Assembly: GCA_964394405.1 (NCBI GenBank)
Contig: CAYMVY010000001.1
Coordinates: forward strand, 166,546 to 230,545
Direction of reading: 5' to 3'
DNA length: 64,000 nucleotides
Origin: an uncultured Gammaproteobacteria bacterium
Lineage (GTDB): Bacteria > Patescibacteriota > Patescibacteriia > Magasanikbacterales > UBA922
Shown here: one piece after another, positions 15,351-59,768 of the stretch
Layout of the letters: every line of letters starts with the position of its first letter
Position numbering within the stretch: position 1 is the stretch's first letter
The notes under the pieces: generated by a model
What the model saw: only the letters and a program-made list of their open reading frames with translations
What the model was told of the DNA's origin: nothing
The model's database searches: none
Translations under genes and position numbers: made by a program

Positions 15351-15427
15351 TAAGTGCCCATAGCCGGGACCAGCATTTTCCAATGATTCATGCGTTACAT
15401 TGGATCGCCATAAGTTTTTGCCACGCA

Positions 15428-15733
15428 TCAGCTTTGTCTCGAAAGCCGATGTTTTCTGCGACACCTCCAGTCTCGAAGATCGAGAATACAAAAGAGGATG
15501 AAGAGGACGGTCCCCTTGGTGCCGAGCACCGCGATGAGAAGCCCGAACCCGATGTTGTCGTCCAGGTACCTTCCGTCCATGGTATGCATGGCCAGACCAA
15601 AGACGGTCAGACCAAACAAAAGTCCGCACACCCACCCGAACCACGAGCCCACAAGCATACGCACTCCTTCTAAACAAAGAACACACCGTAATTGGTAACG
15701 GATGAGAATAACACAAGGGAGGGGTTGTGTCAA
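15428..15733 (-). CDS. small hydrophobic protein encoded in a GC-rich island, hypothetical
   Basis: 101 aa; local GC far above flanks; own terminator; competing ORFs on both strands make frame choice uncertain. Confidence 0.3.
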   Translation of the reverse strand: MTQPLPCVILIRYQLRCVLCLEGVRMLVGSWFGWVCGLLFGLTVFGLAMHTMDGRYLDDNIGFGLLIAVLGTKGTVLFILFCILDLRDWRCRRKHRLSRQS

Positions 15734-24218: not shown

Positions 24219-27200
24219 TTATGTAAACTTATTCTTCAATATCTCCTTAATTCTTCCCCCATACAATTTAACTCCCAAAATAACCGCAAGTCCTGCAAGC
24301 AAAAGCACGACAGCGCGTATGATTTCAATTCGAGAATAACCTTCCCCTTCTTCTACCATTTCTACCATCGCAACTTTCTCCCCTTTTATCACCCCCTCGA
24401 TCCGCACATCTTTCATATCACGCGGAGAAACCATATACCCACTCTTGGTTTCCTGCACGATTCCAGTTACCGAAACACGTGCCCCTTCAGTAAAAAGTGA
24501 TTTATCAATTCCAGATCCTCCACGAATATAGAGTCGCACTTCATCAGTACCATCATCAAGATATACATATGAACCTTTGATGCCCGTCACCTCCCCTGTG
24601 ATCTCGGTTAGCCAGCCCTCATACGGCTCATCAATATCAGCAATAGCAAGCTCAAGCGGAGTGTAGGTCTCGCTCTTTCCCACAATTGATATATCAGTAG
24701 CCGCATCAATTTTCAATCGCGCTTCCCCAGAAGTTTCAGCTAGTTCGCCCGTGATTTTTACCTTATCTCCACGAGCAAGTGTAGGAAAATCTTTTTTATA
24801 TGAATAAATCTGCAATCCCGGAGATCCTGCAATATAAAAATACTGCGAACTCATGACACCAGGCTCTACAACCACCGTTCCAGTTAAAGATACAACCGTT
24901 CCCACATCAAAATTCCGCACGTCAGTAAGTGTCGTCTCTACTTTTGGTTTTGTAGCAATTGTCTTCACCTTCGACTTTACAACCTCGACTGTTGGAACCA
25001 GTGGATTCTTCTCCCCTGGAGTAAGTTCCGCAGTCCAGAACCACATATCACCTCCATACGTATATGACTTCCCTTCTTTTGAAGAAGCATATTCTATTTC
25101 GTACAAAACCAATCCATCAGAATCGATAATCCATACACTCTCTCCAGAATTAGTAAGCGAAAGTTTTGTGTCTTTTGAATAAAACGCTCGATATTCCCCT
25201 TTTTTCAGAATTGTTTCTTCTGGAAATAGATATGGCTTTGAACCACCCTCACCATCATCCAGTGATAATCCTGCCAAATAAATATCTCGATCATGCGGAT
25301 TAAAAAGTTCAATGTATTCATTCTTCGTATCGCTTCCTAGAGGATTAGGTAATATTTCCACAATTACCGGAATAAACTCCGGAGAATAACTATGTTCAAT
25401 AATCCCAAAACCAACTTCTTCTACTGACGACGAAGAAGTTGAAATCGTAGTGGTAGTAGACACGCGGGAAATTATTTTTTCTGTTTTAAAAAAAATATTT
25501 TCACCACCCTTGGTGATCGTCTCAGTAATGATAAAATCTTCTTCATAATTCCCCGAATCTTTGCCTGATATACGCATGAGAGAAGTTCCCTTCGGAGGAG
25601 CTTTAGCAGCCACATCTTCACCATTCCATTCTCCATATACCACTCGATCAATTTCTGTACCGCTCGGATCAGTAAGGGTAAGCAAATCACCAGAATTATT
25701 CAGACTACCTTTGGGTTTTTCTATGACAAAAAATTGTCTCGAAGCAATCGTGCCAGTTAATGTAGTTTTTGCAAGACTTCCGTCCTGAAAAATCCAACCA
25801 TCAAGAGAAATAGACGAACTTGTTATATTTAACAATTCCACAAACTCAGTCTGGTTATCAGAAGGAATTGAGACAAATTCATTAATCAGAATACTCCCTT
25901 CGGCAAATGCTGGCTTAGGTGTTTCAAGAGTTACCACAGATGAATTATTCCCGCCTGTCTGAATTGGTGAAGAAACTACTACTTTTGGAGTAATATTATT
26001 TGGACTTCCGGGTGTCGGAGTAATTGTATAGGCAAAATCTGTGTGATCAATAGTAGTATCTTCCCCATCACTCACCCGAGCGACCGAATGTCCTTTACTG
26101 GGTATTGGAGCCGCACTATTGTCTTCCCCATAAACTACTGCATCAATAATTTCTTGTCCTGCATTTTTTAGTACAATCGAATCGCCCGACTGATTCAGCT
26201 TACTTGAAGATAAATAAACTAACCGGAATCCTGATGTTTCAATCGTTCCAGTAACTGTGGCAATTTTACCCACACCATCATAGAGTGTACATCCATCAAG
26301 CAACACATCTTCTTCTCCTGCATTATACAATTCAATCCACTCTTTCTCTCCGGAATTCGGATCACTCAAAAATTCATTAATAACAATTTTTAGTGTACTA
26401 CTCGGCGCTTCGTCACCACCCCCCTCCTCTTCATCTTCTGGTTCAGGAATTACAGATGGCAGAATTTCAATGGTATGGAAAACCGTACTCGAAGCCTGCT
26501 CTGTATCATACACAGTGAGTATTACCTGTTTAGTCCCCGTAGTTGCAAATGCATATACGACACTCACACCCTCATACATCTCATTTTCAATTATCCATAC
26601 ATACCGCTCAATACCACTCTCGAGATCAGATGAACCAGAAGCATCAAAAAATATTGATTCATCTACCAGTACACTCTGTGGTCCATCAATACGGGCACTC
26701 GGGGCATGATTTACAATCTCTTCCTCAGAATCAGTCCACCAATAATTTTGCGTGCCTGGAGTCGAGGAGACTGGATGTTCTTTCCATTGGAAAATATCAT
26801 CAGACTCGCCTATGTCACTAATCCGCTCAAGTGAATTATTGTTTACACCAGCGTATACAAATTTTTCTACAAAATCATCACTACCACTTCCCTTCTTAAT
26901 CCCAATTTCTTCTCCAGTTTTAGTAAGCGTAGTCCACACACTATCGAATACAGTTGAAGTAGTGTCTGGATGATCTGCAAAAAATACCCTATCGTTTTGT
27001 GCAATAACTGCATAAGTACCTGGAAGAAGAATGGTCGAAGTAATCGTACTGCTCGGACTTATCGTGAGTCCATGATTCGCCCCTCCCTCCCAAAATTTCC
27101 ATCCAGTTAAATCTACAGCCTCAGCGCTTTTATTATAAATCTCAATCCACTGATGATCACTCGAGGCACATCCGCTCGGACATATTTCAGTGATGATAAT

Positions 27201-27296
27201 ATTCTCCGAAACTGTCTTTACATTTTTTGTGAATAAAAAAATACTTAATGCAATCACAAATACAATAAGTACTATTTCCCTCCATTGTTCTTTCAT
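24219..27296 (-). CDS. large cell-surface protein with multiple lamin-tail-domain (LTD) repeats, N- and C-terminal membrane anchors
   Basis: 1025 aa; N-terminal signal/TM; repeated LTD signatures INEFLSDPNSGEKEWIELYN, EFVELLN, EYIELFN; C-terminal TM IIRAVVLLLAGLAVILGV. Confidence 0.65.
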   Translation of the reverse strand: MKEQWREIVLIVFVIALSIFLFTKNVKTVSENIIITEICPSGCASSDHQWIEIYNKSAEAVDLTGWKFWEGGANHGLTISPSSTITSTILLPGTYAVIAQNDRVFFADHPDTTSTVFDSVWTTLTKTGEEIGIKKGSGSDDFVEKFVYAGVNNNSLERISDIGESDDIFQWKEHPVSSTPGTQNYWWTDSEEEIVNHAPSARIDGPQSVLVDESIFFDASGSSDLESGIERYVWIIENEMYEGVSVVYAFATTGTKQVILTVYDTEQASSTVFHTIEILPSVIPEPEDEEEGGGDEAPSSTLKIVINEFLSDPNSGEKEWIELYNAGEEDVLLDGCTLYDGVGKIATVTGTIETSGFRLVYLSSSKLNQSGDSIVLKNAGQEIIDAVVYGEDNSAAPIPSKGHSVARVSDGEDTTIDHTDFAYTITPTPGSPNNITPKVVVSSPIQTGGNNSSVVTLETPKPAFAEGSILINEFVSIPSDNQTEFVELLNITSSSISLDGWIFQDGSLAKTTLTGTIASRQFFVIEKPKGSLNNSGDLLTLTDPSGTEIDRVVYGEWNGEDVAAKAPPKGTSLMRISGKDSGNYEEDFIITETITKGGENIFFKTEKIISRVSTTTTISTSSSSVEEVGFGIIEHSYSPEFIPVIVEILPNPLGSDTKNEYIELFNPHDRDIYLAGLSLDDGEGGSKPYLFPEETILKKGEYRAFYSKDTKLSLTNSGESVWIIDSDGLVLYEIEYASSKEGKSYTYGGDMWFWTAELTPGEKNPLVPTVEVVKSKVKTIATKPKVETTLTDVRNFDVGTVVSLTGTVVVEPGVMSSQYFYIAGSPGLQIYSYKKDFPTLARGDKVKITGELAETSGEARLKIDAATDISIVGKSETYTPLELAIADIDEPYEGWLTEITGEVTGIKGSYVYLDDGTDEVRLYIRGGSGIDKSLFTEGARVSVTGIVQETKSGYMVSPRDMKDVRIEGVIKGEKVAMVEMVEEGEGYSRIEIIRAVVLLLAGLAVILGVKLYGGRIKEILKNKFT

Positions 27297-27365
27297 ACCC
27301 CTCCGTATGTTAGAAATAAATTGTTGATAAATTCAATATACCACACTCAGAAAGCAACGTAAACT

Positions 27366-27420
27366 CCCTCCCCTCTTAGGGGAGGGCCAGAGTGGGGTTA
27401 AACCTATAAAACAAAAAAAC
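27366..27420. repeat. G-rich REP-like hairpin element copy 2 (ccctcccct-ctt-aggggaggg + agtggggtt + aaaacaaaaaaa)
   Basis: Same stem as copy 1 at 647; loop is the reverse complement (ctt vs aag) while flanks keep orientation. Confidence 0.6.
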
Positions 27421-27528
27421 ACCTTTCGGTGATCTATTTTTCAGAATTGAGTCAGACGGGCCACGCGAAATGCGCAGCCCGCCCGTTCATCTACGACCCC
27501 CGAATTAGGGTCGCAGGTTCGACATGGT

Positions 27529-28491
27529 TCATTTATCGGCAGTCGTCGGCAGCTTGATTTTACTAAACCACGGACAACGCACAAGGAAAGATTCCTCATG
27601 CTCAGCCCAGGTACAGTCATCGAACGCCGGGTCCCCTTCGTCAATACGACCATCACAGTCGTTGTCGCCCCCATCCTGGAAGTCGTACCCTTCTCGATGC
27701 GGCCCAACGAGTATGGACTCACCAGTCTGCATGAGAGAGATCCCGTAGGGACAAACAAGGCGGTCCAAGAAGAGAAGCCTCTCCTCATGAAACTCACAGA
27801 GCACAGCCGCGTGCCCCAGCCTAGGGTCATCAGCGCAGTCGCAAGTTGTCTGACCAAGTGCAGGCAGACCATCGCATGCAGGATAGCCATCGCGGTCGCA
27901 GTCGTTGCCAGGCAGAGAATAGCACTCAACAAAGAAGAGGGTAGCCGGGGAATTCAGTGTGGAGTCGTTAGCTTCCTCTTCTTGACCGACGGTACCCAAA
28001 CCGAGAGCTCCATCAACCACCCCATCGCAGTTGTCACCTTTCCAGTCTGTAGCGCCAGGATGGTTGAGATTACTCCCATCCATCTTGAACGCACCGCTAT
28101 CAGACCCAACAGTGGGGCGTTCACCATCGCTCGGATTGTCATCGCAGTCGCCGCCACGAAGTTCGTTGACCTGGAAGACGGGATTCAGTGATCCGACGCA
28201 GGGCGCCGTCTCGCAGAACCCATCTCCATCGTCGTCGTAGTTGTCGGCGGTCATGTCTGCCATGAGCCCGCCGTCAGAGCCAGAAGCGCCGATCGGAACT
28301 CTGCCATGACGATCGACGAAGAGGTGGCACATGCCCGTGCTAGGGATGCAGTAGTGCCCGTTGTCACAGTCCGAGTTCACGGAACAGCTCTTCGCCTCTC
28401 CACCAGACTGACGCTCGATGAGCAGGTAGACGGCGGTCGCGAGGAGGACAGCGGCGAGCGAGAGGAGAGCGATCAGAGAAAACTTCTTCAT
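27529..28491 (-). CDS. secreted Cys/Asp-rich repeat protein (MopE-like putative metal-binding motifs), GC-rich island gene
   Basis: Signal peptide MKKFSLIALLSLAAVLLA; repeated DGDGFCE, DCDRDGYPACDG, DNDCDGRIDEGD motifs; SD aagga 7 nt upstream; local GC about 58%. Confidence 0.55.
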   Translation of the reverse strand: MKKFSLIALLSLAAVLLATAVYLLIERQSGGEAKSCSVNSDCDNGHYCIPSTGMCHLFVDRHGRVPIGASGSDGGLMADMTADNYDDDGDGFCETAPCVGSLNPVFQVNELRGGDCDDNPSDGERPTVGSDSGAFKMDGSNLNHPGATDWKGDNCDGVVDGALGLGTVGQEEEANDSTLNSPATLFFVECYSLPGNDCDRDGYPACDGLPALGQTTCDCADDPRLGHAAVLCEFHEERLLFLDRLVCPYGISLMQTGESILVGPHREGYDFQDGGDNDCDGRIDEGDPAFDDCTWAEHEESFLVRCPWFSKIKLPTTADK

Positions 28492-28734
28492 CTCATTTTC
28501 CTTTTCTGTGTGTGTTTACCCCACTTCAAGCCGGGGTGCATAGCATTTCACATACCAAATTTGATATGCACAATGCTACGCACCCGCATATAAACCATGT
28601 CGAATTGTAATGAACTATTTTATTTTCTTTTTCGGATTTCGTCCTAATTTTCAGGACTCATCAGTGCCGATTTAATCGACAGATCCTTTGGAGCCAGCTC
28701 GACCTAGTGTCGAGTCTGGCTCCGGTTGAGAACG

Positions 28735-29577
28735 TTACTGCTGCGGAGGCAGGGCAAACCACCAGGTGATCTGATAGGTGTTGCCCGACTCAACGTCTGT
28801 CACGTTGATGCTGACGGACATTTGGATCTCGGCAGCCTGAGCTTCAGTAATATCGGGGAGATACACCCCAGCCAAAATTTCCATTTCGGCGCTCGGCGGA
28901 ACGGTATACCCGCCCATCTCGCAGGTTGCGAAGACTGTGTGCTCGAACGTCGTCTCATCGCACGAGCGTGGAAAGAAAGCGGCACGTCCCACATCTCCGA
29001 GATACAGCGAGACCTGATCATCGTCTGCATCACCCTGAGTGGGAATATTGTGACCCTGCACGATGACGTGATTGATCACGACTCCGTATCCGCAATTGTC
29101 TTCGATCGCGACCCTCATCTCAACCCACATATTCGCAATACCCGGAGCGGTGTTGATCATCAGATCACTGGTCCATGTCGTTTCAATGAGCGAGCTGATG
29201 TACGCGCCACGCTGAGGGTAGTCGGTGTACGGCTCGCACAAGTCTTCCTCAGCCTGCCGATCGCCGAGCGGCAAGCTGGTGCCGTCCGGACACACGAGGT
29301 TCGCTGTACCGTCACCATTGTCGACGAGAGTACAACTCTCTCCATCCTCACCATCCTGCCCCGGGATTCCCTGCGGACCCTGGGGCCCCATGGCACCGTC
29401 GGTACCATCTTCCCCATCGATCCCGCTCTTGCCCGGGTCTCCTCGGTCCCCCTTGTCACCCTTCTCACCCGCCGGACCCTGGGGGCCCGGTTCTCCCTCG
29501 ACGACGTACGTATCGCACGCGAAGAGGAAGAGGTTGAAGAACGAGACGAGAACGACGAGAAAACGAATCGTGGCCAT
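28735..29577 (-). CDS. secreted collagen-like (Gly-X-Y) repeat protein, GC-rich island gene
   Basis: Signal peptide then GEPGPQGPAGEKGDKGDRGDPGKSGIDGEDGTDGAMGPQGPQGIPGQDGEDG; SD ggaggtg upstream. Confidence 0.55.
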   Translation of the reverse strand: MATIRFLVVLVSFFNLFLFACDTYVVEGEPGPQGPAGEKGDKGDRGDPGKSGIDGEDGTDGAMGPQGPQGIPGQDGEDGESCTLVDNGDGTANLVCPDGTSLPLGDRQAEEDLCEPYTDYPQRGAYISSLIETTWTSDLMINTAPGIANMWVEMRVAIEDNCGYGVVINHVIVQGHNIPTQGDADDDQVSLYLGDVGRAAFFPRSCDETTFEHTVFATCEMGGYTVPPSAEMEILAGVYLPDITEAQAAEIQMSVSINVTDVESGNTYQITWWFALPPQQ

Positions 29578-29928
29578 GATACACCTCCATAGGCGTAGTT
29601 GATCCCTTCAGCCGGCCAGGCCAAAAGGATAGTTGTGTATGGTACTAGTCAACGTGACTACCCATTGGTGTGCCAAGCATTTAGCAGACCAATATGTAGT
29701 CACGTTAGTAAAAATCAATTGGAAAGGACTATTATTTTAACGAGCTAGTATAACATATATGCGCAAATTTGTCAAGGTAATTGGGTAATATTTTGGCTAA
29801 TTTTAGCAAAATTTGCTTAACTCAGTATACTATTTTTCTTCTGCTCAATGTTATATACCCCAGTCTTCATGTTTTCCCCAACCTATCCCCCACCAAAAGC
29901 CCTAATTTGTATACAATATTCTACACAT

Positions 29929-29969
29929 TGTGGATAATTATGTGGAAAAGTACGCACATATGTGGATAA
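29929..29969. promoter_or_regulatory. DnaA-box cluster distant from dnaA: tgtggataa (x2, perfect reverse complement of TTATCCACA) plus tgtggaaaa
   Basis: Boxes at 29929-29937, 29941-29949, 29961-29969, all same orientation; flanked by palindromic ttttggctaaNtttagcaaaat copies at about 29786 and 30022. Confidence 0.45.
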
Positions 29970-38409: not shown

Positions 38410-38440
38410 AAAAATCCCTCCGAGCTGGAGGGATTTTTTT
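38410..38440. terminator. bidirectional terminator (atccctccgagctggagggat + T7)
   Basis: 8-bp stem; between PBP1A and dnaN ends. Confidence 0.75.
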
Positions 38441-39566
38441 ACTGTCTGATCGGCATCACAATATACTTGAAAGTTTCATCTCCATCTACCGTAAACAAAC
38501 ACGGAGAGTCAGGAGAATTGATATGCATCTGTGCTTCCTCTTTTTCGATCTGCTGTAGACCATCCAATACATACCGGTGATTGAGTAGTACGGTCATTTT
38601 TTCCCCGACCACCTCGCCCTCCACGTATGACGAATGTTCACCCGTTTGTGCACTTACCGAGGTTACACCGATTTGTTTTTTCTCAGGATCTAATTCAAAA
38701 GAAATCGAATTAACTCCAGCAATAGTAAATAAACTCGCTGCTTTTATTTTATTACTAATCTCTGAAACAGAAAAAGTCGCTGTGTTTTTGAAAGTAGTGG
38801 GTATAATCTGTGTATAATCTGGATAGCGTCCTTCAATAAGTCGACTAACCATTTCAAATTTATCATACCGAATTGCAATTTGATTTTGACTCACGGTCAC
38901 TCGTACGTTTTCCTCCCCCTCATGTTGTCGTCCGAGTTGTATGAGACGTGCCATTTCATAAGCCACTCTCCCAGGCACAATACAGGTTACCTCAGCATCT
39001 TCGCCTTGTGCGATAGGAACCCGCGCTTCAGAAAGTCGGTACGAGTCAGTTGCTGCCATTAGCAAACCTTCGTAACGCTCGCTTTTGAATCTACAAAAAA
39101 TACCAGAAAACTCAGGACGTATTTCATTTTTTGCACAGGAAATTACCACTTTCCCAATCTGATCTTTGAATGTTTGAGCGTGTATCAAGTAGGTGTGTCC
39201 TTCCTCAATCGCAGGAATTACTGGGTACTCTTCTGCAGGGAATCCTTTTATTTTTGTCTGAGATCCGGAAGAGTGGATAACGAGCTCGTTTGACTCAAGT
39301 GTGAGCTCCACCTGATCATTCGTGAGAAGTCGCACGTATTCAGTCAGCGTACGAGCAGGGACAGTAAAAGTTCCTGGTTCATCCACCTTTGCTCGTATGT
39401 GTGTTTTGACTGAGACTTCAAGATTGGTAGCACTTATCTCTACTCCAGACTCATGTGCACGTATAAGCACATTCTGTAGTATAGGGAGATTTACATGTTT
39501 ACTTGCAAATGCATTTACAATCTCTAGACTATATAATAAATTTTCACGTGTGGATGTTAGTTTCAT
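38439..39566 (-). CDS. dnaN: DNA polymerase III beta sliding clamp
   Basis: 375 aa, three-domain clamp; N-terminus MKLTSTRENLLYSLEIV typical. Confidence 0.9.
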   Translation of the reverse strand: MKLTSTRENLLYSLEIVNAFASKHVNLPILQNVLIRAHESGVEISATNLEVSVKTHIRAKVDEPGTFTVPARTLTEYVRLLTNDQVELTLESNELVIHSSGSQTKIKGFPAEEYPVIPAIEEGHTYLIHAQTFKDQIGKVVISCAKNEIRPEFSGIFCRFKSERYEGLLMAATDSYRLSEARVPIAQGEDAEVTCIVPGRVAYEMARLIQLGRQHEGEENVRVTVSQNQIAIRYDKFEMVSRLIEGRYPDYTQIIPTTFKNTATFSVSEISNKIKAASLFTIAGVNSISFELDPEKKQIGVTSVSAQTGEHSSYVEGEVVGEKMTVLLNHRYVLDGLQQIEKEEAQMHINSPDSPCLFTVDGDETFKYIVMPIRQ

Positions 39567-39813
39567 ATGTATTTCTCTTTTTATATTATAATCTAGTAGA
39601 TAATAATAGAGGCTGTGAATGGAGGGGATAAATCGTTTTTATTGCTAACTGTAGATATTTTTTTGATTTTATTGTGTGCACAAGTCAGGGATACTTTTTG
39701 AACAGAGGGTGAATAGGTTTTGGTATGTGTGTGGGGTGTGTGCAAAACTTTTAGTTAGTACCAGTTTATTAACCCACTTAAATACAGGTATTGGGCTAAG
39801 TTATGCACAGAAA

Positions 39814-41202
39814 TTAAATTTTATTTGAGTATAAACGTTGTTTGATAAGTTCAATATCCTGCTTTAATTTAAGATCATTATCAACTTCTTTTACAATCTT
39901 TGAGTGTGCGTGCATAGCAGTAGTGTGATCACGTCCACCAAGCTCTTCTCCAATACTTGGGTAGGAAAGCTTGAGCTCTTCTCTCATAAGATACATAATA
40001 ATCTGTCGAGGGAACGCAAAGCGCTTCTCTCTGCTTTTGCCCACAATATCTTCCATTTTAATATCATAAAATTTTATAATCTCCTCAATCAGGTCTTTAG
40101 GAGTAAGCGAGCGACGCATATTCTGTTCTTGAAAGCTTGAGAGAATGTGTCGGATCGATTCTTCTGTCGGGGTCGCATTTTTGAGCTCATGAAAAGCAAT
40201 AATCTTGTTCAAAGCGCCCTCGAGCTCACGAATATTGCTCTGGATACTCACTGCAATGAGGTTCTGAATATCAGGGGAAATAGGAAATTGGCGTTCTGCA
40301 GCCTTTTTTTGGATGATGGCCATGCGAGTTTCCAAATCAGGAGCCGAAATATCAGCAATCATCCCCCACTCAAACCTGCTGCGAAGACGATCTTCGAGAG
40401 CAGGAATAGCTTTTGGAGGTCGGTCACTCGTCATTACCACCTGCTTTCCCTGCTGATGGAGCTCATTGAAGGTGTGGAAGAATTCTTCCTGGGTCTGTTC
40501 TTTACCCCCGATGAATTGAATATCATCAATAAGTAGTAAATCAACATTGCGATAACGATCCTTAAATTCTTTTGCACGACCTTCTTTGACTGAGGAGACA
40601 AACTCATTGGTAAACTTTTCAGAACTTACGTACAAGATTTTTACATTTGGGTCAGCCGCAAGCATGGTGTGGCCAATCGCCTGGATAAGGTGTGTTTTGC
40701 CAAGACCGACGCCTCCATAGATAAAGAGAGGGTTATACGCATCTCCAGGTCGAGAAGCTACAGCCTGAGCCGCAGCATGTGCCAATTCATTACCTTTTCC
40801 GACCACAAAAGTCTCAAAAACGTATTTGGAATTAAGACCGAATTGTTGAACTAGAAGCGCTTTCTTTGGTAAGGGGGCAATAGACGGGTGGATAATAGGA
40901 GCTCTCTGAGCATCAGAAGTATTGGGAGTACACTCCTGTTCTTTGATATTCCGGACATTATCAACCACATAATCAGTTTTTTTGACTGGTTTTCCGGTTA
41001 CACGCTCCAATATTTTTACGATGGTTCCGTGGTATTTTTTTTCAAGCCAGCTTTTGGTAAATGCATTGGGTACACAGACCACCACCTGACCATTCTCATA
41101 GCTAGCAATTCCAGTATTTTTGAACCAGGTTGTGAAGTTGGCTTTTGAAAGAGTGAGTTCAAATTCAGCCAAAACTGCCTGCCAGATTTCGTAATTAGTC
41201 AT
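39814..41202 (-). CDS. dnaA: chromosomal replication initiator
   Basis: AAA+ Walker A GGVGLGKTHL, DnaA signature, C-terminal DNA-binding HTH. Confidence 0.9.
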   Translation of the reverse strand: MTNYEIWQAVLAEFELTLSKANFTTWFKNTGIASYENGQVVVCVPNAFTKSWLEKKYHGTIVKILERVTGKPVKKTDYVVDNVRNIKEQECTPNTSDAQRAPIIHPSIAPLPKKALLVQQFGLNSKYVFETFVVGKGNELAHAAAQAVASRPGDAYNPLFIYGGVGLGKTHLIQAIGHTMLAADPNVKILYVSSEKFTNEFVSSVKEGRAKEFKDRYRNVDLLLIDDIQFIGGKEQTQEEFFHTFNELHQQGKQVVMTSDRPPKAIPALEDRLRSRFEWGMIADISAPDLETRMAIIQKKAAERQFPISPDIQNLIAVSIQSNIRELEGALNKIIAFHELKNATPTEESIRHILSSFQEQNMRRSLTPKDLIEEIIKFYDIKMEDIVGKSREKRFAFPRQIIMYLMREELKLSYPSIGEELGGRDHTTAMHAHSKIVKEVDNDLKLKQDIELIKQRLYSNKI

Positions 41203-41282
41203 AGTTTGTGTTTATGAGGGGAATTGTAACACAGTTTATAAATCCAAAAAATGCTCTAAATTAAGCGAAAAGTGTATATTAT

Positions 41283-41310
41283 GTGGATTACCTGTGGATG
41301 GTGTGGATAA
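41283..41310. promoter_or_regulatory. three tandem DnaA boxes upstream of dnaA (tgtggatta, tgtggatgg, tgtggataa)
   Basis: Perfect and 1-2-mismatch reverse-complement TTATCCACA boxes read directly; candidate oriC / dnaA autoregulation site. Confidence 0.55.
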
Positions 41311-41455
41311 TACATAGAAAACAAGCATACGCGAAAACAAAATAGTTGACAATACATACTTTTTCATGTTTACTATCACCCGTCTCTTGCGAACACTGCA
41401 CGCGCAGTTATGTAGGCGACGCAACCACCGTCAACAGCTTCAGGAGGAATTCCGC

Positions 41456-41746
41456 ATGATGGATCTGAGTATCGCGCTCAAGGGTCGTGCTCACAAGAGC
41501 AAGAAGCCGAAGAAGCAGGTCGTCAAGGGCATGCTCGAGGTCATCGAGACCAATGCCAGGGGGCGTGGCGGTAGGCCGCGCTGCCAGGTGGTCACGGCCC
41601 GGAACACCTCGGCCAACCTCATGGACGTCACCCTCACGGGAGACGGCAGCCTGCTGATGACGGCCGTGCTCAAGCGGGGCGAGCAGCGCTCGTTCAGCGT
41701 GCCCCCGGGCACCGTCGCGAAGAAGATCGACATCATCGCGTTCTAA
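41456..41746 (+). CDS. small basic protein encoded by a GC-rich island in the dnaA-rpmH interval, hypothetical
   Basis: 96 aa from ATGATG with strong SD caggagg 9 nt upstream; about 62% GC; followed by an 11-bp-stem terminator. Confidence 0.45.
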   Translation: MMDLSIALKGRAHKSKKPKKQVVKGMLEVIETNARGRGGRPRCQVVTARNTSANLMDVTLTGDGSLLMTAVLKRGEQRSFSVPPGTVAKKIDIIAF

Positions 41747-44148: not shown

Positions 44149-44826
44149 TCATGCAGCCCCATCGTCATTTCCGCCTCGGTAGAGACGAAGATGTGGTGGA
44201 GGGGGCGATCGGGGGTTGTGTCGGGAATGATAACCTGTCCCATATTTGCCGCCATGAATGCAGCGTAGAGGTGCCCTATGTGGAGGTGGAATTTGAGCAG
44301 GTTGTGCTAGCGGCTGAGCAATCGGGGCATCTGCATTCGACACCTCACTCATTACAGACCCGAACAATTCTTCACGCAAGATAGAGAGCACTTCAAGTCT
44401 GAAGAAGAAGTGTCCGTTTTCATGTGAAGTCGATCGGATTGCCCACTCCAGTTCGTTGCGGACTCTCGGTGAAGAGAGGATCGCGTCAACGGGGTATTTT
44501 CCGATAGTTGTTCGGATGGGGGCAATGAGGTCAAGGGTTGATCGGAAGTTTACCCTTTGAAACTCAGTCCAGTCGACCGCGATTCGCACGTGGACACGAG
44601 CACCATCTCGAGACGATACGCAGTAGGTCTGCTTATCCGAGTTGTAGAAGTGGAAGTCGTGCCTCTCGAAGTGCTGCCAGGGCCATCGGAGGTGGATTCC
44701 AGGGGCAAGTCCGCGGAAATGATTGTGAGTCTTTCGGACCGCAATCGTACCTGCAGGAACCATGATGATCAGACGTGCGGCCAGAAAGAGGACGCACAGA
44801 CACAGTACAATGATACCGTACAACAT
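44149..44826 (-). CDS. SPFH/band-7-like domain protein with Pro-rich tail, GC-rich island gene
   Basis: N-terminal TM then VPAGTIAVRKTHNHFRGLAPGIHLRWPW… resembling SPFH; SD aagga upstream of Met at 44826; perfect 11-bp terminator hairpin at 44106-44144. Confidence 0.4.
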   Translation of the reverse strand: MLYGIIVLCLCVLFLAARLIIMVPAGTIAVRKTHNHFRGLAPGIHLRWPWQHFERHDFHFYNSDKQTYCVSSRDGARVHVRIAVDWTEFQRVNFRSTLDLIAPIRTTIGKYPVDAILSSPRVRNELEWAIRSTSHENGHFFFRLEVLSILREELFGSVMSEVSNADAPIAQPLAQPAQIPPPHRAPLRCIHGGKYGTGYHSRHNPRSPPPPHLRLYRGGNDDGAA

Positions 44827-45230
44827 GTGCAATCCTTGGTAAGGGTGGGGAGAATGAACTGTGTACAACATAGCATAAAGAATAAAAAAAATAAAGGCAC
44901 AACATAAAATATTGTACGACGTTAAAAATTATTAATATTAAGCTATTTTATTACTGTTTTATAAAAAATGTTAGAAAATGGGTAAGATCTTCTCTCTATT
45001 ATTTTAATAAATACTATCCCCGCTCATTTGATTCTGATTTCTAATACAGAAAACAAACACGGACTGTAAATCCGTGTTTAGTAAAGAGTCTGTGTTTGTT
45101 TTTCCCGACAGGAACCAATCTACATCCTTCGATGGACAGATAGAACCTTATGTATTGTGCCCCCCCCACCGCGAATCGAACGCGGATCTAGACGTGATTG
45201 AGTGTCTTGTTCCCCGCCTGCCATCGCCTG

Positions 45231-46297: not shown

Positions 46298-46765
46298 ATG
46301 TTTACGATCATTCTGTCGTTCCTTCTCCTCGTTACTCTCGTGACCGCCATCTTCCTCGCGAAGGAACTCGTGAAGAAGTTCACCTTCCTCAAGGGGTACA
46401 CAGACGGTAACAAAAACTGTATCCGTTGGCACTACCGAGGGAGCGATGTGGAGGGGCATAAACCGGGCATGTACACGATCGTGCTCCACAACACCAGGGG
46501 CGGTGAATTCACGGCCGTGGCCGCGTTTGAACTCCTGCTCCCGTTCGGGATCAAGGGGGTGGACCAGTTCGGACTCATCAAGAGTAGAGGGGCTGGTGTG
46601 GTCGCGTTCTCGACGTATCTGGGCAAGGGGGAGTGTGAATTCATTTTCCTCCTCAACGGGGCAAAGCCCGAACAGGTCGAGCGCTCGATCGACGTGACCG
46701 GCGAGATCACCCCAACCCAGACATATCCGCCGCACTGGTGGCAGCGACTCGGATTCTGGGGCTGA
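46298..46765 (+). CDS. N-terminally anchored hypothetical protein, GC-rich island gene
   Basis: 155 aa; TM helix MFTIILSFLLLVTLVTAIFLA; about 60% GC; followed by 10-bp-stem hairpin at 46811-46838; antisense ORF also open. Confidence 0.35.
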   Translation: MFTIILSFLLLVTLVTAIFLAKELVKKFTFLKGYTDGNKNCIRWHYRGSDVEGHKPGMYTIVLHNTRGGEFTAVAAFELLLPFGIKGVDQFGLIKSRGAGVVAFSTYLGKGECEFIFLLNGAKPEQVERSIDVTGEITPTQTYPPHWWQRLGFWG

Positions 46766-53453: not shown

Positions 53454-53909
53454 ATGAGGGTCAAGGTGTTTGAGATGATTGTGACATTCGGGACTGTGCC
53501 GGAAGTGCCGGCAGGTCATAGAAAGTACAAGCGTCACGACGAGACGCTCGTGGTGCATTCGTACGAGAGAAAGTCGGATGAATGGGATGACCCGGAACTC
53601 ATCTACCGATACCTCACTCGTCACGAGCTCACTCGGGCCGATACGGTGTATGTCTACGTCGGAGACGTGGAGCAGGCATGCGCAACGCGAGAGCAATCAT
53701 GGCTTCTGGTTCGCCGGATCCTCAAGGACCTCAATGGTCGCAGGAAAGAGGTTGCGGTGGTGACCAGCTTCGAAGGACTCGATCCCGAAGTTCGGGAAAA
53801 GGAGAATCGCGAAGCAGAACAACTCGGAGTTCGGGTGGTCGAACTGAAGGGCGTGTCGGCGGAGAAGTTCTTCGCAGACATTGTTCGGAAGTATCGACCG
53901 GCAGCCTGA
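53454..53909 (+). CDS. hypothetical acidic protein, GC-rich island gene
   Basis: 151 aa spanning the island (about 57% GC); frame choice uncertain because antisense ORFs of about 100 aa also exist. Confidence 0.3.
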   Translation: MRVKVFEMIVTFGTVPEVPAGHRKYKRHDETLVVHSYERKSDEWDDPELIYRYLTRHELTRADTVYVYVGDVEQACATREQSWLLVRRILKDLNGRRKEVAVVTSFEGLDPEVREKENREAEQLGVRVVELKGVSAEKFFADIVRKYRPAA

Positions 53910-56789: not shown

Positions 56790-56968
56790 AAGAATATTAG
56801 GTAGGGATAGTATAGCAGGTTTTTTGGAACACGTAACACATATCACATATCAAAAAACAAGTCTAGATTAAGTAAATTTTGCTAAATTAAGACAAAATGT
56901 TTATGAAAATAGTTGACAAATCAATCTATGTATGGTATCTGAGTTACAAACTGCCAAAGGAGGCATAC

Positions 56969-57340
56969 GTGTACAAAGTGCTGATCGTCGTAGTTCTGTG
57001 GTTGGTGGAAACAATGGCCTGTACCCCCACACAGCCACCGCAGCCATGCCCACCCCCGACACTGGAGAAGGGTCCAGAGCCAGTGGTGTCCGCGCACTTC
57101 AGGCTGGAGTTCAAGACTGTCGCAGGCGTAGAAGGTGTCAGGTTTTACGACCTACAGATGGCCACTGTGTGTCCTGGTGGAAGGACGTACGTGGCTGAAC
57201 TCGACACTCTCTACGAATCAACACAGTTTACATGGGCCGAATACAGGCGGTGGATGGAAAAAGTGGTGGCACAAGCGTGTCGTCTACCATCAGGGGCCCC
57301 CATACCACCCCTCGATAGCGGTACTGACCGGCTGCACTGA
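56969..57340 (+). CDS. small putative lipoprotein, GC-rich island gene (GTG start)
   Basis: Strong SD aaggagg 6 nt before GTG; N-terminus (M)YKVLIVVVLWLVETMAC with Cys after hydrophobic segment then Pro-rich linker; about 58% GC. Confidence 0.4.
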   Translation: MYKVLIVVVLWLVETMACTPTQPPQPCPPPTLEKGPEPVVSAHFRLEFKTVAGVEGVRFYDLQMATVCPGGRTYVAELDTLYESTQFTWAEYRRWMEKVVAQACRLPSGAPIPPLDSGTDRLH

Positions 57341-59312: not shown

Positions 59313-59678
59313 TCATGGTCTCGAGACATGGCTTGCCAGAGGGTCAGAGTCGAGGAAGCGCCAGTCGTGGCAGTGGTTCTGGTGGTCGCCATAGACAGCA
59401 ACGGGCCGATCGCGTACGAACTCCTTCATCCGAGGGCAGTCGGTGAACCAATACACCTCGTGGATGTCGAAGTTCGTGATGAAGATGGTGCGCACGCCGG
59501 GGAAGAATGGGTATCCGATGGCAGGTCGCCGACTCAGTTCATCCAGAGCAACATGTTGCTGCTCTGCACTCACGATGAGTAGACTCCCGAACACCGTGAT
59601 CAGGGAGATCATCCAGATGATGGCCTTATTTCGAAGCCTCCTGAGTTTTGTTTGGGCGATGTCGATGTGTACAGTCAT
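59313..59678 (-). CDS. signal-anchored hypothetical protein, GC-rich island gene
   Basis: MTVHIDIAQTKLRRLRNKAIIWMISLITVFGSLLIV… with SD gagg upstream; antisense ORF 59280..59582 also open. Confidence 0.3.
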   Translation of the reverse strand: MTVHIDIAQTKLRRLRNKAIIWMISLITVFGSLLIVSAEQQHVALDELSRRPAIGYPFFPGVRTIFITNFDIHEVYWFTDCPRMKEFVRDRPVAVYGDHQNHCHDWRFLDSDPLASHVSRP

Positions 59679-59768
59679 GGTGGACCTCTGTGGTACAAAA
59701 GAGCGAACACTAGTATCTAGTATTCTCAAAAAGGTTGAATGTTGTCAAGAAAATTTAAATAGACAAGT

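Follow-up and report, generated by a model that had tools for sequence, protein, structure and literature searches.

We analysed a GC-rich island within a 64-kb stretch of DNA (the window) from contig CAYMVY010000001.1. The island lies directly upstream of a conserved gene for a protein with LTD domains and contains two minus-strand genes: gene C, which encodes a predicted collagen-stalk lipoprotein, and gene B, which encodes a Cys/Asp-rich protein with a predicted signal/anchor helix (Table 1). The spacer between them carries a predicted type III hammerhead ribozyme, which is the most unusual feature of the island and was absent from a preliminary description of this DNA. When the 64 kb were scanned in 200-nt windows for a G+C content (GC) of at least 0.52, the longest blocks were 27451–28550 and 28651–29650, with a GC of 0.57 against a background of 0.42. 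The runner-up run in the window measures 750 bp, and the earlier claim that this is the largest GC island therefore holds. Relatives were collected by an LTD-anchored scan of GTDB species genomes and by exact look-ups. Labels L002–L033 denote the compared loci and contigs, of which 11 are related loci (L002, L007–L013, L032 and L033, plus the short L003–L005 contigs).

Genes of the island

Gene C begins with the signal peptide MATIRFLVVLVSFFNLFLFA, which is followed directly by Cys21. Eight homologues all have this residue, preceded by A or G at position −1. The invariant lipobox Cys and the presence of lspA (Peptidase_A8) 1.3 kb away lead us to predict that C is a lipoprotein. The preliminary description had counted about 17 G-X-Y triplets; we count 18, and the stretch scores 41.4 bits with Pfam Collagen (PF01391; gathering threshold 27.2). 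In an AlphaFold2 model of the C monomer, the mean predicted local distance difference test score (pLDDT) is 53; the β-strands between residues 140 and 275 reach 65–78, and the repeat remains below 50. Foldseek comparison of the head with the PDB returns generic immunoglobulin-like or β-sandwich folds, with template modelling scores of 0.5–0.6 on small targets; its structural neighbours include ApaG, TTHA1873, MSCRAMM adhesin domains and integrin domains. A fold search of BFVD with C gave weak, generic matches and nothing specific.

The product of gene B contains 18 Cys, 39 Asp and 38 Gly residues. The repeated DxDxDG/CxDG motifs described earlier are present as three DxDxDG strings, at residues 86 (DDDGDG), 197 (DCDRDG) and 276 (DNDCDGRIDEG); the literal CxDG is not present in B, although CDG is. 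PF11617 (Cu-binding_MopE) aligns with residues 273–285 only and scores 13.9 bits, Lustrin_cystein scores 17.4 bits (the cut-off is 27 for both), and TSP_3 (PF02412) gives no match to B at E ≤ 1 in Pfam. Since the PF11617 score is below the threshold, the label “MopE-like” in the preliminary description denotes a resemblance of motifs and not a family assignment. By analogy with motifs of this kind, the DxDxDG-type loops of B most likely bind Ca2+ and are held by disulfides. The AlphaFold2 model of B, based on an alignment of five sequences, has a pLDDT of 41, with helix 2–28 at 83–94 and the rest below 50.

The conserved module of B follows the pattern C-x-G-x-Y-C ... VD-x-RG ... DDDGDG[FY]CE-x-x-PC ... 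GGDCDDNP ... NHPGA ... DN-x-C[DN]G. HMMER finds this module in 66 proteins among 1.84 billion representatives, 31 of them with E < 1e-10, and B has 4 relatives among 5.8 billion proteins. In most of the matches the module forms the C-terminal domain of Cys-rich lipoproteins of 500–800 aa with TSP_3, Dicty_CTDC or DUF7151 repeats. Several module relatives score 19.9–22.4 bits on PF11617 over the NHPGA...CDG part, and a search with a 13-sequence module profile yielded eight short proteins. The B profile found only chance thaumatin matches (E ≥ 0.07) in a PDB sequence search.

The module also occurs in larger genes elsewhere. A cassette-type B protein of 159 aa (P0129) and a 763-aa protein with collagen-like, DUF7151 and Dicty_CTDC regions (P0133) share a near-identical C-terminus of about 47 aa with one substitution, which suggests that parts of the module have recently been exchanged between small genes of the cassette type and genes for large surface proteins. 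The B module forms the end of each of three adjacent genes in L006 (8001–13122; 485, 207 and 752 aa), whose GC at third codon positions (GC3) is 0.70–0.82. They are situated in an envelope cluster with a GC of 0.42–0.45 (Wzy_C, glycosyltransferases, GNVR), where no hammerhead is present.

Both sense frames are under purifying selection, with ratios of nonsynonymous to synonymous substitution rates (dN/dS) of 0.25 for B (against the L033 homologue) and 0.28 for C (against L008). On the plus strand, the open reading frame (ORF) 28726–29592, which is antisense to C and codon-aligned with it, is fully open in the window, L007 and L032, and we asked whether it might be the true gene, or whether the island might be a chimeric assembly. 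Either possibility is barely credible. The antisense ORF has no family match in Pfam and is interrupted by two stops in L008 and five in L033, and its openness is accounted for by the near absence of TTA, CTA and TCA codons from the sense genes. In the sense frame we find a signal peptide with its lipobox, the G-X-Y periodicity, a match to a Pfam family and the low dN/dS given above. The same genes were assembled in the same order in an independent Logan assembly (SRR12404947, 13.6 kb), and the arrangement recurs in many metagenome-assembled genomes (MAGs); the island is thus no assembly artefact. The antisense ORF having no family and carrying stops in the closest relatives, the minus strand is the coding strand, as first described.

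The LTD gene downstream of the island has a dN/dS of 0.13–0.15, and its product is 55–84% identical to those of syntenic relatives where this was measured. The protein has an N-terminal hydrophobic anchor, four LTD domains, a PKD domain, an oligonucleotide-binding (OB) fold and a C-terminal transmembrane segment. As had been proposed, LTD (PF00932) is recognised, over four stretches with 190 bits (E 1.4e-56, above gathering); PKD_4 scores 38.5 bits and tRNA_anti-codon (OB) 40.5 bits. Its N-terminus shows weak similarity to the extracellular nucleases ExeM and NucH, no nuclease domain was found in the protein, and comM lies 4 kb from the gene; the LTD protein may bind DNA at the cell surface. 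The LTD protein, B and C all look exported or anchored, as the preliminary description had it. A role in the cell envelope or in adhesion, as proposed there, is the most reasonable reading of the encoded proteins.

Table 1. Predicted and observed features of the island and of its surroundings (window positions; UTR, untranslated region)
Feature	Position	Strand	Remarks
Gene C	28735–29577	minus	280 aa
C lipoprotein signal peptide (predicted)	29518–29577	minus	Lipobox LFAC; Cys21 codon 29515–29517
C G-X-Y stalk	29335–29496	minus	Uninterrupted triplets, aa 28–81; short Cys knot after
C β-sandwich head (predicted)	28738–29238	minus	aa 114–280
Gene B	27529–28491	minus	320 aa
B signal/anchor helix (predicted)	28408–28488	minus	aa 2–28, possibly cleaved after ATA
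B conserved Cys/Asp-rich module	28012–28386	minus	aa 36–160
B variable tail		minus	aa 161–320; second DxDCDG motif
B 3′ UTR	27445–27528	minus	GC-rich, two hairpins; common to L008/L009 second-slot genes
Cassette promoter (predicted)	29747–29775	minus	Sigma-70-type TTGACA-17-TGnTATACT, 11/12 matches, extended −10
C 5′ leader	29578–29740	minus	Native GC; long hairpin 29651–29706
Hairpin 1	28690–28723	minus	Very stable; just past C stop codon and just 5′ of predicted cleavage site; minimum free energy and centroid folds
Type III hammerhead (predicted)	28628–28696	minus	Native-GC spacer between C and B
Stem III	28683–28686 with 28634–28637	minus	
Stem I	28665–28681	minus	
Core CUGAUGA	28658–28664	minus	
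Stem II	28641–28657	minus	
GAA	28638–28640	minus	
Hairpin 2	28532–28585	minus	Long; B leader, between hammerhead and ribosome-binding site; centroid fold
Terminator-like hairpin	27413–27432	minus	CACC-GAAA-GGUG then U run; read from sequence, not listed by scan
DnaA-box cluster	29929–29969	minus	Two perfect boxes and one with 1 mismatch in 41 bp
LTD gene	24219–27296	minus	1025 aa, native GC, conserved; downstream anchor of slot
LTD-gene promoter-like site	27335–27363	minus	TTTACG-17-TGnTATATT, consensus match only
Small GC island	15401–15700		
Small GC island	41366–41746	plus	
Small GC island	44149–44871	minus	
Small GC island	46298–46765	plus	
Small GC island	53454–53909	plus	
Small GC island	56897–57340	plus	
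Small GC island	59313–59729	minus	

A conserved slot with changing content

A GC-rich island occupies the same slot in the 11 related loci. Wherever the sequence covers both flanks, the slot is bordered by the dksA-like gene and the LTD gene. In these cases the gene order is LysM-M23 peptidase, comM, lspA, dksA-like, island and LTD, usually followed by a Na+/H+ exchanger. All relatives with an LTD identity of 55–84% have a GC-rich island of 0.6–2 kb directly upstream of the LTD gene, and the island of L033 is placed behind the same promoter; no such island precedes the LTD gene of L014, whose LTD protein is 39% identical. The islands contain one or two small ORFs for secreted proteins or lipoproteins with a GC3 of 0.52–0.74, compared to 0.25–0.33 in the flanking genes. 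The syntenic relatives belong to the Candidatus Magasanikbacteria/Magasanikiibacteriota lineage of the candidate phyla radiation (CPR). The MAG records of L009, L010, L012, L013 and L016 are titled “uncultured Gammaproteobacteria bacterium”; the first four are syntenic with Magasanikbacteria-type loci and have LTD proteins that are 56–79% identical, and their taxon labels are probably wrong.

Pairwise comparison reveals a mosaic. Aligned to L008 with blastn, homology extends from 30264 to 29278 (the promoter, the leader and, within C, the signal peptide and stalk), is lost over the C head, returns with 96% identity over the spacer (28729–28504), is lost over B and is back from 27492 through the LTD gene at 83%. 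The spacer is 88% identical to that of L009, and the flanks are 83–85% identical; the resemblance of the spacers among relatives is unusually high. The C proteins of the window and L008 are 90% identical over residues 1–102, after which that of L008 continues with leucine-rich repeats (LRR; LRR_4, 38.5 bits). Homology to L009 and L012, which contain the other cassette type, ends at 29738–29747, exactly at the −10 element, and homology to L009 resumes, as for L008, at 27492 within the 3′ UTR of B. Conserved flanks thus enclose non-homologous content at the same site among relatives, which is what characterises a replacement island.

The first position of the slot is occupied by a collagen-stalk lipoprotein in the window, L007, L008, L032 and L033, with a β-sandwich head in the window, an LRR head in L008 and a third kind of head in L033. 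In L009 and L012, it is taken by an unrelated signal-anchored family, which is found second in L007; L010, L011 and L013 have other lipoproteins in the slot. The second position contains the B family in the window and L033, where the tail is replaced by TSP3-like repeats, and small TSP_3 proteins in L008 and L009 (25.8–27.5 bits, cut-off 25). L002 has only one 195-aa B-type gene in the slot. Since all full-length C homologues with enough sequence context (L007, L008, L032 and L033) are situated in the slot or behind its promoter, the C family evolves in place and did not arrive as a one-time event. We rejected the island as a target of a diversity-generating retroelement: no second copy of any island segment exists in the 64 kb, reverse transcriptase not having been searched for specifically, and the differences between relatives are replacements of whole segments. 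With respect to an integron, no integrase was found among the called genes of the locus.

The regulatory elements surrounding the cassettes are shared. The TTGACA...TATACT promoter is kept in 8/8 relatives in which the region is covered (L002, L007, L009–L012 and L033, and the −10 element in L008). The C-type leader travels with C-type cassettes, and the other cassette family carries a different one. The same terminator-like element follows the last cassette or hammerhead in L007, L008, L009, L012 and L032, and the hairpin at 27413–27432 is predicted to end the cassette transcript. Counterparts of the B 3′ UTR are found in L008 (2195–2290) and L009 (9572–9660), where the first hairpin keeps its stem and changes its inner sequence; compared with Rfam, this conserved element matches none of the families at E ≤ 1. 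Two of the four perfect DnaA boxes of the window (TTATCCACA) are located in the cluster 155–195 bp upstream of the cassette promoter, and a box pair with the same 32-bp spacing exists in L007, L008, L009, L012 and L032. The cluster could provide DnaA-dependent control or titrate DnaA, about 11 kb from oriC. The chromosomal origin region itself (38439–41365) contains dnaN (38439–39566, minus strand), dnaA (39814–41202, minus strand) and DnaA boxes (41282–41310), and the cumulative GC skew has its minimum at about 39–41 kb.

The island differs from its surroundings in codon usage. GC3 is 0.62 in B and 0.68 in C, compared to 0.30–0.35 in the adjoining genes, and A at the third position drops to 0.08 in the island ORFs from 0.33 in native genes. 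The GC shift of B and C is synonymous, and the change in codon usage is even along signal peptide, stalk, head, module and tail. It spans the ORFs and the 3′ UTR of B (GC 0.55), and the C 5′ leader (0.42) and the C–B spacer (0.43) have native composition. We rejected translational selection by tRNA matching as an explanation, because A-ending codons of Pro, Ala, Gly and Leu are avoided in the island ORFs despite tRNAs with UNN anticodons for these amino acids being encoded in the window. In deep relatives with an LTD protein identity of 55–63%, at which synonymous sites are presumably saturated, the island GC3 is still 0.52–0.60. GC-rich codon usage is an old, maintained property of the slot ORFs across the clade.

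The preliminary description regarded the module as partly assembled from acquired DNA. Taken as a recent event, B and C would be foreign DNA from a GC-richer donor that came to lie beside the native LTD gene to form an adhesion module. Their GC3 (0.62–0.68 versus 0.30) and codon preferences unlike those of the host would agree with this, as would the great rarity of both families, the position of the B module at the end of large Cys-rich multidomain proteins, possibly of GC-rich origin, and the other small GC-rich ORFan islands scattered in the window. However, the same slot is filled in 11 loci, the placed full-length C homologues are all found at it or at its promoter, and the leader and spacer within the island are native in composition. 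For the conserved N-terminal portions of B and C, which are still GC3-rich, divergence is about that of the flanks, with synonymous values of 0.46–0.56 versus 0.64 for the LTD gene, and neither an integrase, a flanking direct repeat nor a tRNA was found at the island borders. We consider recent acquisition unlikely; the atypical composition is a long-standing property of the slot and not the trace of a recent import into the window genome. An ancient import that was then maintained, or recurrent import of replacement ORFs, is possible. The GC-rich, A3-poor (poor in third-position A) usage may be caused by repeated import from a GC-richer source, by biased gene conversion at a recombination hot spot or by selection that acts on the mRNA, such as on its stability.

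The window contains at least six more small GC islands (300–750 bp). Except for the one at 15.4 kb, whose frame is unclear, each matches one ORFan with a GC3 of 0.53–0.83. These ORFans have no significant Pfam match, several have N-terminal hydrophobic segments, and none of the small islands has a hammerhead nearby in the window. GC-rich recoding of small genes may be a genome-wide phenomenon. The persistence of GC-rich, A3-poor ORFs in genomes of about 40% GC means that atypical composition does not always signify recent horizontal transfer, and A3-poor recoding creates long shadow ORFs that are able to mislead gene callers.

A predicted hammerhead ribozyme separating B and C

On the transcript strand, the C–B spacer begins with the hairpin GGAGCCAG...CUGGCUCC, then AAAGGAUC and, across the predicted cleavage site, UGUCGAUUAAAUCGGCA, followed by CUGAUGA GUCCU GAAAAUU AGGAC GAAA UCC. 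The core is complete: it comprises C3-U4-G5-A6-N7-G8-A9, G12-A13-A14, the A15.1–U16.1 pair and an AUC cleavage triplet, from which we predict cleavage 3′ of C28682. The hammerhead is of type III, with stem III open and the other two stems closed. Rfam Hammerhead_3 (RF00008) aligns with 22.8 bits (E 0.12 in 3.1 kb; gathering 48.5), a hit that is obtained in E-value mode only and is missing from the gathering scan.

Nine slot copies have CUGAUGA...GAAA with AUC (or CUC, AUA) before stem I. The only core changes, N7 = C and H17 = A, both at permissive positions, are found in L032. We assessed covariation in the seven copies found first, using 15 pairs and controls in which the 3′ partners were slid. 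All 105 pair cells are paired (100%) and 9 of the 15 pairs are compensatory, whereas the slid controls are paired in 26–47% of cells; the score with our own covariance model is 91 bits. In an independent set of 12 distinct sequences from 14 metagenome stretches, kept out of model building, 98% of the cells are paired and 10 of 15 pairs are compensatory. In L007, one gene has a ribozyme copy on either side, and in the single-cassette relatives L012 and L032 the ribozyme lies between hairpin 1 and the terminator. The L033 copy (1539–1647) has an insertion of about 40 nt that is confined to loop 2 and leaves stem II and core intact. With the covariance model we found no further hammerhead in the 64-kb window, nor any in L002, L010, L011, L014 or L006.

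The hammerhead is flanked by two hairpins. The entire spacer has a strong fold (z = −6.7), made up of hairpin 1, the two closed stems of the hammerhead (I and II) and hairpin 2, which precedes the ribosome-binding site of gene B. The stem of hairpin 1 is kept with altered inner sequence in L007b, L009, L012 and L032; it has no U run, and a terminator scan found none between C and B. Hairpin 2 is conserved in L008, L009 and L033, and a spurious Rfam match to mir-471 falls on it.

It could be argued that the element is a conserved, non-catalytic spacer or terminator structure and that the GC-rich ORFs are fast-evolving resident genes. The sub-threshold Rfam score, the short stem III and the failure of the covariance model to find the element in the deeper relatives L002, L010 and L011 would be in line with this. 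On the other hand, the 11 core nucleotides, the A15.1–U16.1 pair and the NUH site are invariant, apart from the permissive N7 and H17 in L032, and all three helices covary. In a spacer that was a plain hairpin, unpaired core bases would not be conserved, and we regard a non-catalytic element as quite improbable.

A second alternative is a prophage or phage-moron remnant, with C as a tail-fibre-type protein and the hammerhead as a leftover of phage transcript processing. In bacteria, hammerheads often lie in prophages or close to integrases, and the genes next to them are variable (PMC3088659); C is also matched by tail-fibre families of PHROG, with E values as low as 7e-15. These matches are limited to the G-X-Y repeat (residues 28–80), however, and C begins with a lipoprotein signal peptide, which is lacking in virion fibres. 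IMG/VR contains no relative of B or of the C head and no match to the hammerhead pattern, and the BFVD matches are weak and generic. The neighbours are housekeeping genes (M23 peptidase, comM, lspA, dksA-like and the Na+/H+ exchanger) whose order is conserved in all relatives, and, apart from the collagen repeat, we found no phage homology in the region, nor any phage gene or integrase at the locus. The link to phage fibres that the preliminary description drew thus comes down to the collagen repeat, and a phage origin appears highly improbable to us.

Hammerheads outside the slot were also compared. In a genome of about 0.37 GC, L021, L024 and L028 have a 3.4-kb GC-rich island (GC 0.54–0.62) with genes for a secreted protein of 299 aa and a He_PIG protein of 586 aa. 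A type III hammerhead is located at the 3′ border of this island, just upstream of a native-GC gene whose N-terminus looks glycosyltransferase-like by eye. A general association of hammerheads with GC-rich DNA was rejected: L021/L024 and the slot show it clearly, L031 shows it mildly, and L018, L022, L025 and L030 do not show it. The example of L021/L024 suggests that the pairing of GC-rich island and hammerhead may extend beyond the slot.

A cassette model and its relation to known systems

The locus is best described as a hypervariable slot for surface-protein genes, split by the predicted ribozyme. The model that best accounts for it, and that we consider probable, is a surface-protein cassette operon that is insulated by a ribozyme and swapped by recombination. 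The island would be the variable part of a small, strongly promoted operon upstream of the conserved LTD gene, and its cassettes would be interchangeable. Cassette 1 (C) would be lipid-anchored, with a collagen-like, presumably trimerising stalk that presents a variable β-sandwich head away from the membrane; cassette 2 (B) would be a membrane-anchored Cys/Asp-rich protein with MopE/TSP3-like loops. Both genes would be co-transcribed from the promoter at 29775–29747, and the transcript would cut itself at the hammerhead in the spacer. This would leave the C mRNA with a 3′ end formed by the stable hairpin 1 and a 2′,3′-cyclic phosphate, and the B mRNA with a 5′-OH, the ribozyme core and hairpin 2 ahead of its ribosome-binding site. 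We propose that each cassette is insulated by this cleavage, so that its stability and translation would be independent of its neighbour. Homologous recombination within conserved stretches (the promoter, the spacer, the signal/stalk region and the LTD-proximal sequence) would exchange whole ORFs or only their head and tail domains, which would explain the mosaic pattern. The exchange is probably driven by diversifying selection that acts on attachment to hosts or on how phages or predators recognise the cell.

Several points weigh against this model. The Rfam score of 22.8 is below the gathering threshold of 48.5, and stem III has only 4–5 pairs and is not recovered by thermodynamic folding. 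Since the distant relatives L002, L010 and L011 have the slot without a hammerhead, the ribozyme is not essential to it. Gene B may have its own promoter, and the GC-rich recoding may be caused by repeated import from a GC-richer gene pool. The predicted fold of the C head is only a generic β-sandwich (model pLDDT 53), and that of B is unmodelled beyond its transmembrane helix (pLDDT 41). Ca2+ binding by B is read from motifs only, in a protein without TSP_3 and with a sub-threshold PF11617 score.

A bolder form of the proposal is a dedicated plug-and-play system for surface variation in this lineage. Cassettes, each consisting of a leader hairpin, a GC-recoded ORF depleted in third-position A, a 3′ hairpin and a hammerhead, would be exchanged from genome to genome at one strongly promoted slot flanked by DnaA boxes; the ribozyme would insulate them, and the recoding would be actively maintained, for mRNA stability or as a signature of exchange, and would be no foreign relic. 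We put this forward tentatively and regard it as doubtful in its full extent.

For bacterial hammerheads, which were found in 2010–2011, a fixed junction with swapped neighbours points to a role as insulator or in defining mRNA ends. The slot also pinpoints the proteins that most likely mediate, and are selected on, the contact of these CPR bacteria with hosts or phages. The candidates are the collagen-stalked lipoprotein with its exchangeable heads and the anchored Asp/Cys-rich proteins.

Synthetic insulators of the RiboJ type consist of a type III hammerhead and a hairpin upstream of the ribosome-binding site, and standardise the 5′ end of the downstream mRNA. The slot has the same order of parts, from hammerhead through hairpin and ribosome-binding site to gene, and by analogy may act as an insulator. 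Unlike RiboJ, the slot element is natural, and it would in addition give the upstream mRNA a defined 3′ end that follows a hairpin.

Like Scl1/Scl2, Lcl and BclA, C combines a G-X-Y stalk with a variable globular head, and the NCBIfam models for Scl and Lcl match the repeat. It remains far below their cut-offs (38.6 versus 325), however, and has an N-terminal lipobox and not LPXTG. In contrast to these proteins, the head of C is C-terminal and is swapped between relatives (β-sandwich, LRR or other). B resembles PF11617 (MopE) and thrombospondin type 3 proteins in its DxDxDG and DCDDNP...NHPGA...DNDCDG motifs, and TSP_3 repeats are found in the same slot of L008, L009 and L033. Unlike in these families, the 125-aa module of B is a distinct, rare unit, for which the PDB sequence profile search found no matching solved structure.

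Bacterial hammerheads flank single, non-constant genes and cut polycistronic RNAs of about 2 kb in vitro (PMC3088659, Perreault et al. 2011). The slot copies resemble them in having the consensus core, an intergenic position on the sense strand of an operon and non-constant neighbours, and the two copies that bracket one gene in L007 recall those flanking single genes. In contrast to those hammerheads, which are mostly from prophages, the slot copy is situated in a chromosomal, syntenic housekeeping neighbourhood of a CPR bacterium. It also differs in that it always has a stable hairpin upstream, and one downstream where a second cassette follows, and in that it separates GC-recoded surface-protein genes.

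The slot shares conserved flanks, differing surface-protein genes at the same place and atypical composition with flexible genomic islands of the replacement type that encode cell-envelope proteins, for example the cell-wall island of Haloquadratum walsbyi (PMC4535781). Compared to such islands, it is very small (one or two genes), has one conserved promoter and a ribozyme at the cassette junction, and exchanges its content down to the level of domains. In a full-text literature search, hammerheads and the candidate phyla radiation did not occur together in any paper, and no paper was found that combines Magasanikbacteria with GC content and horizontal gene transfer. Neither flexible envelope islands nor operonic hammerheads were found reported for this lineage in the literature searched, and we regard the slot as a new variant of both.

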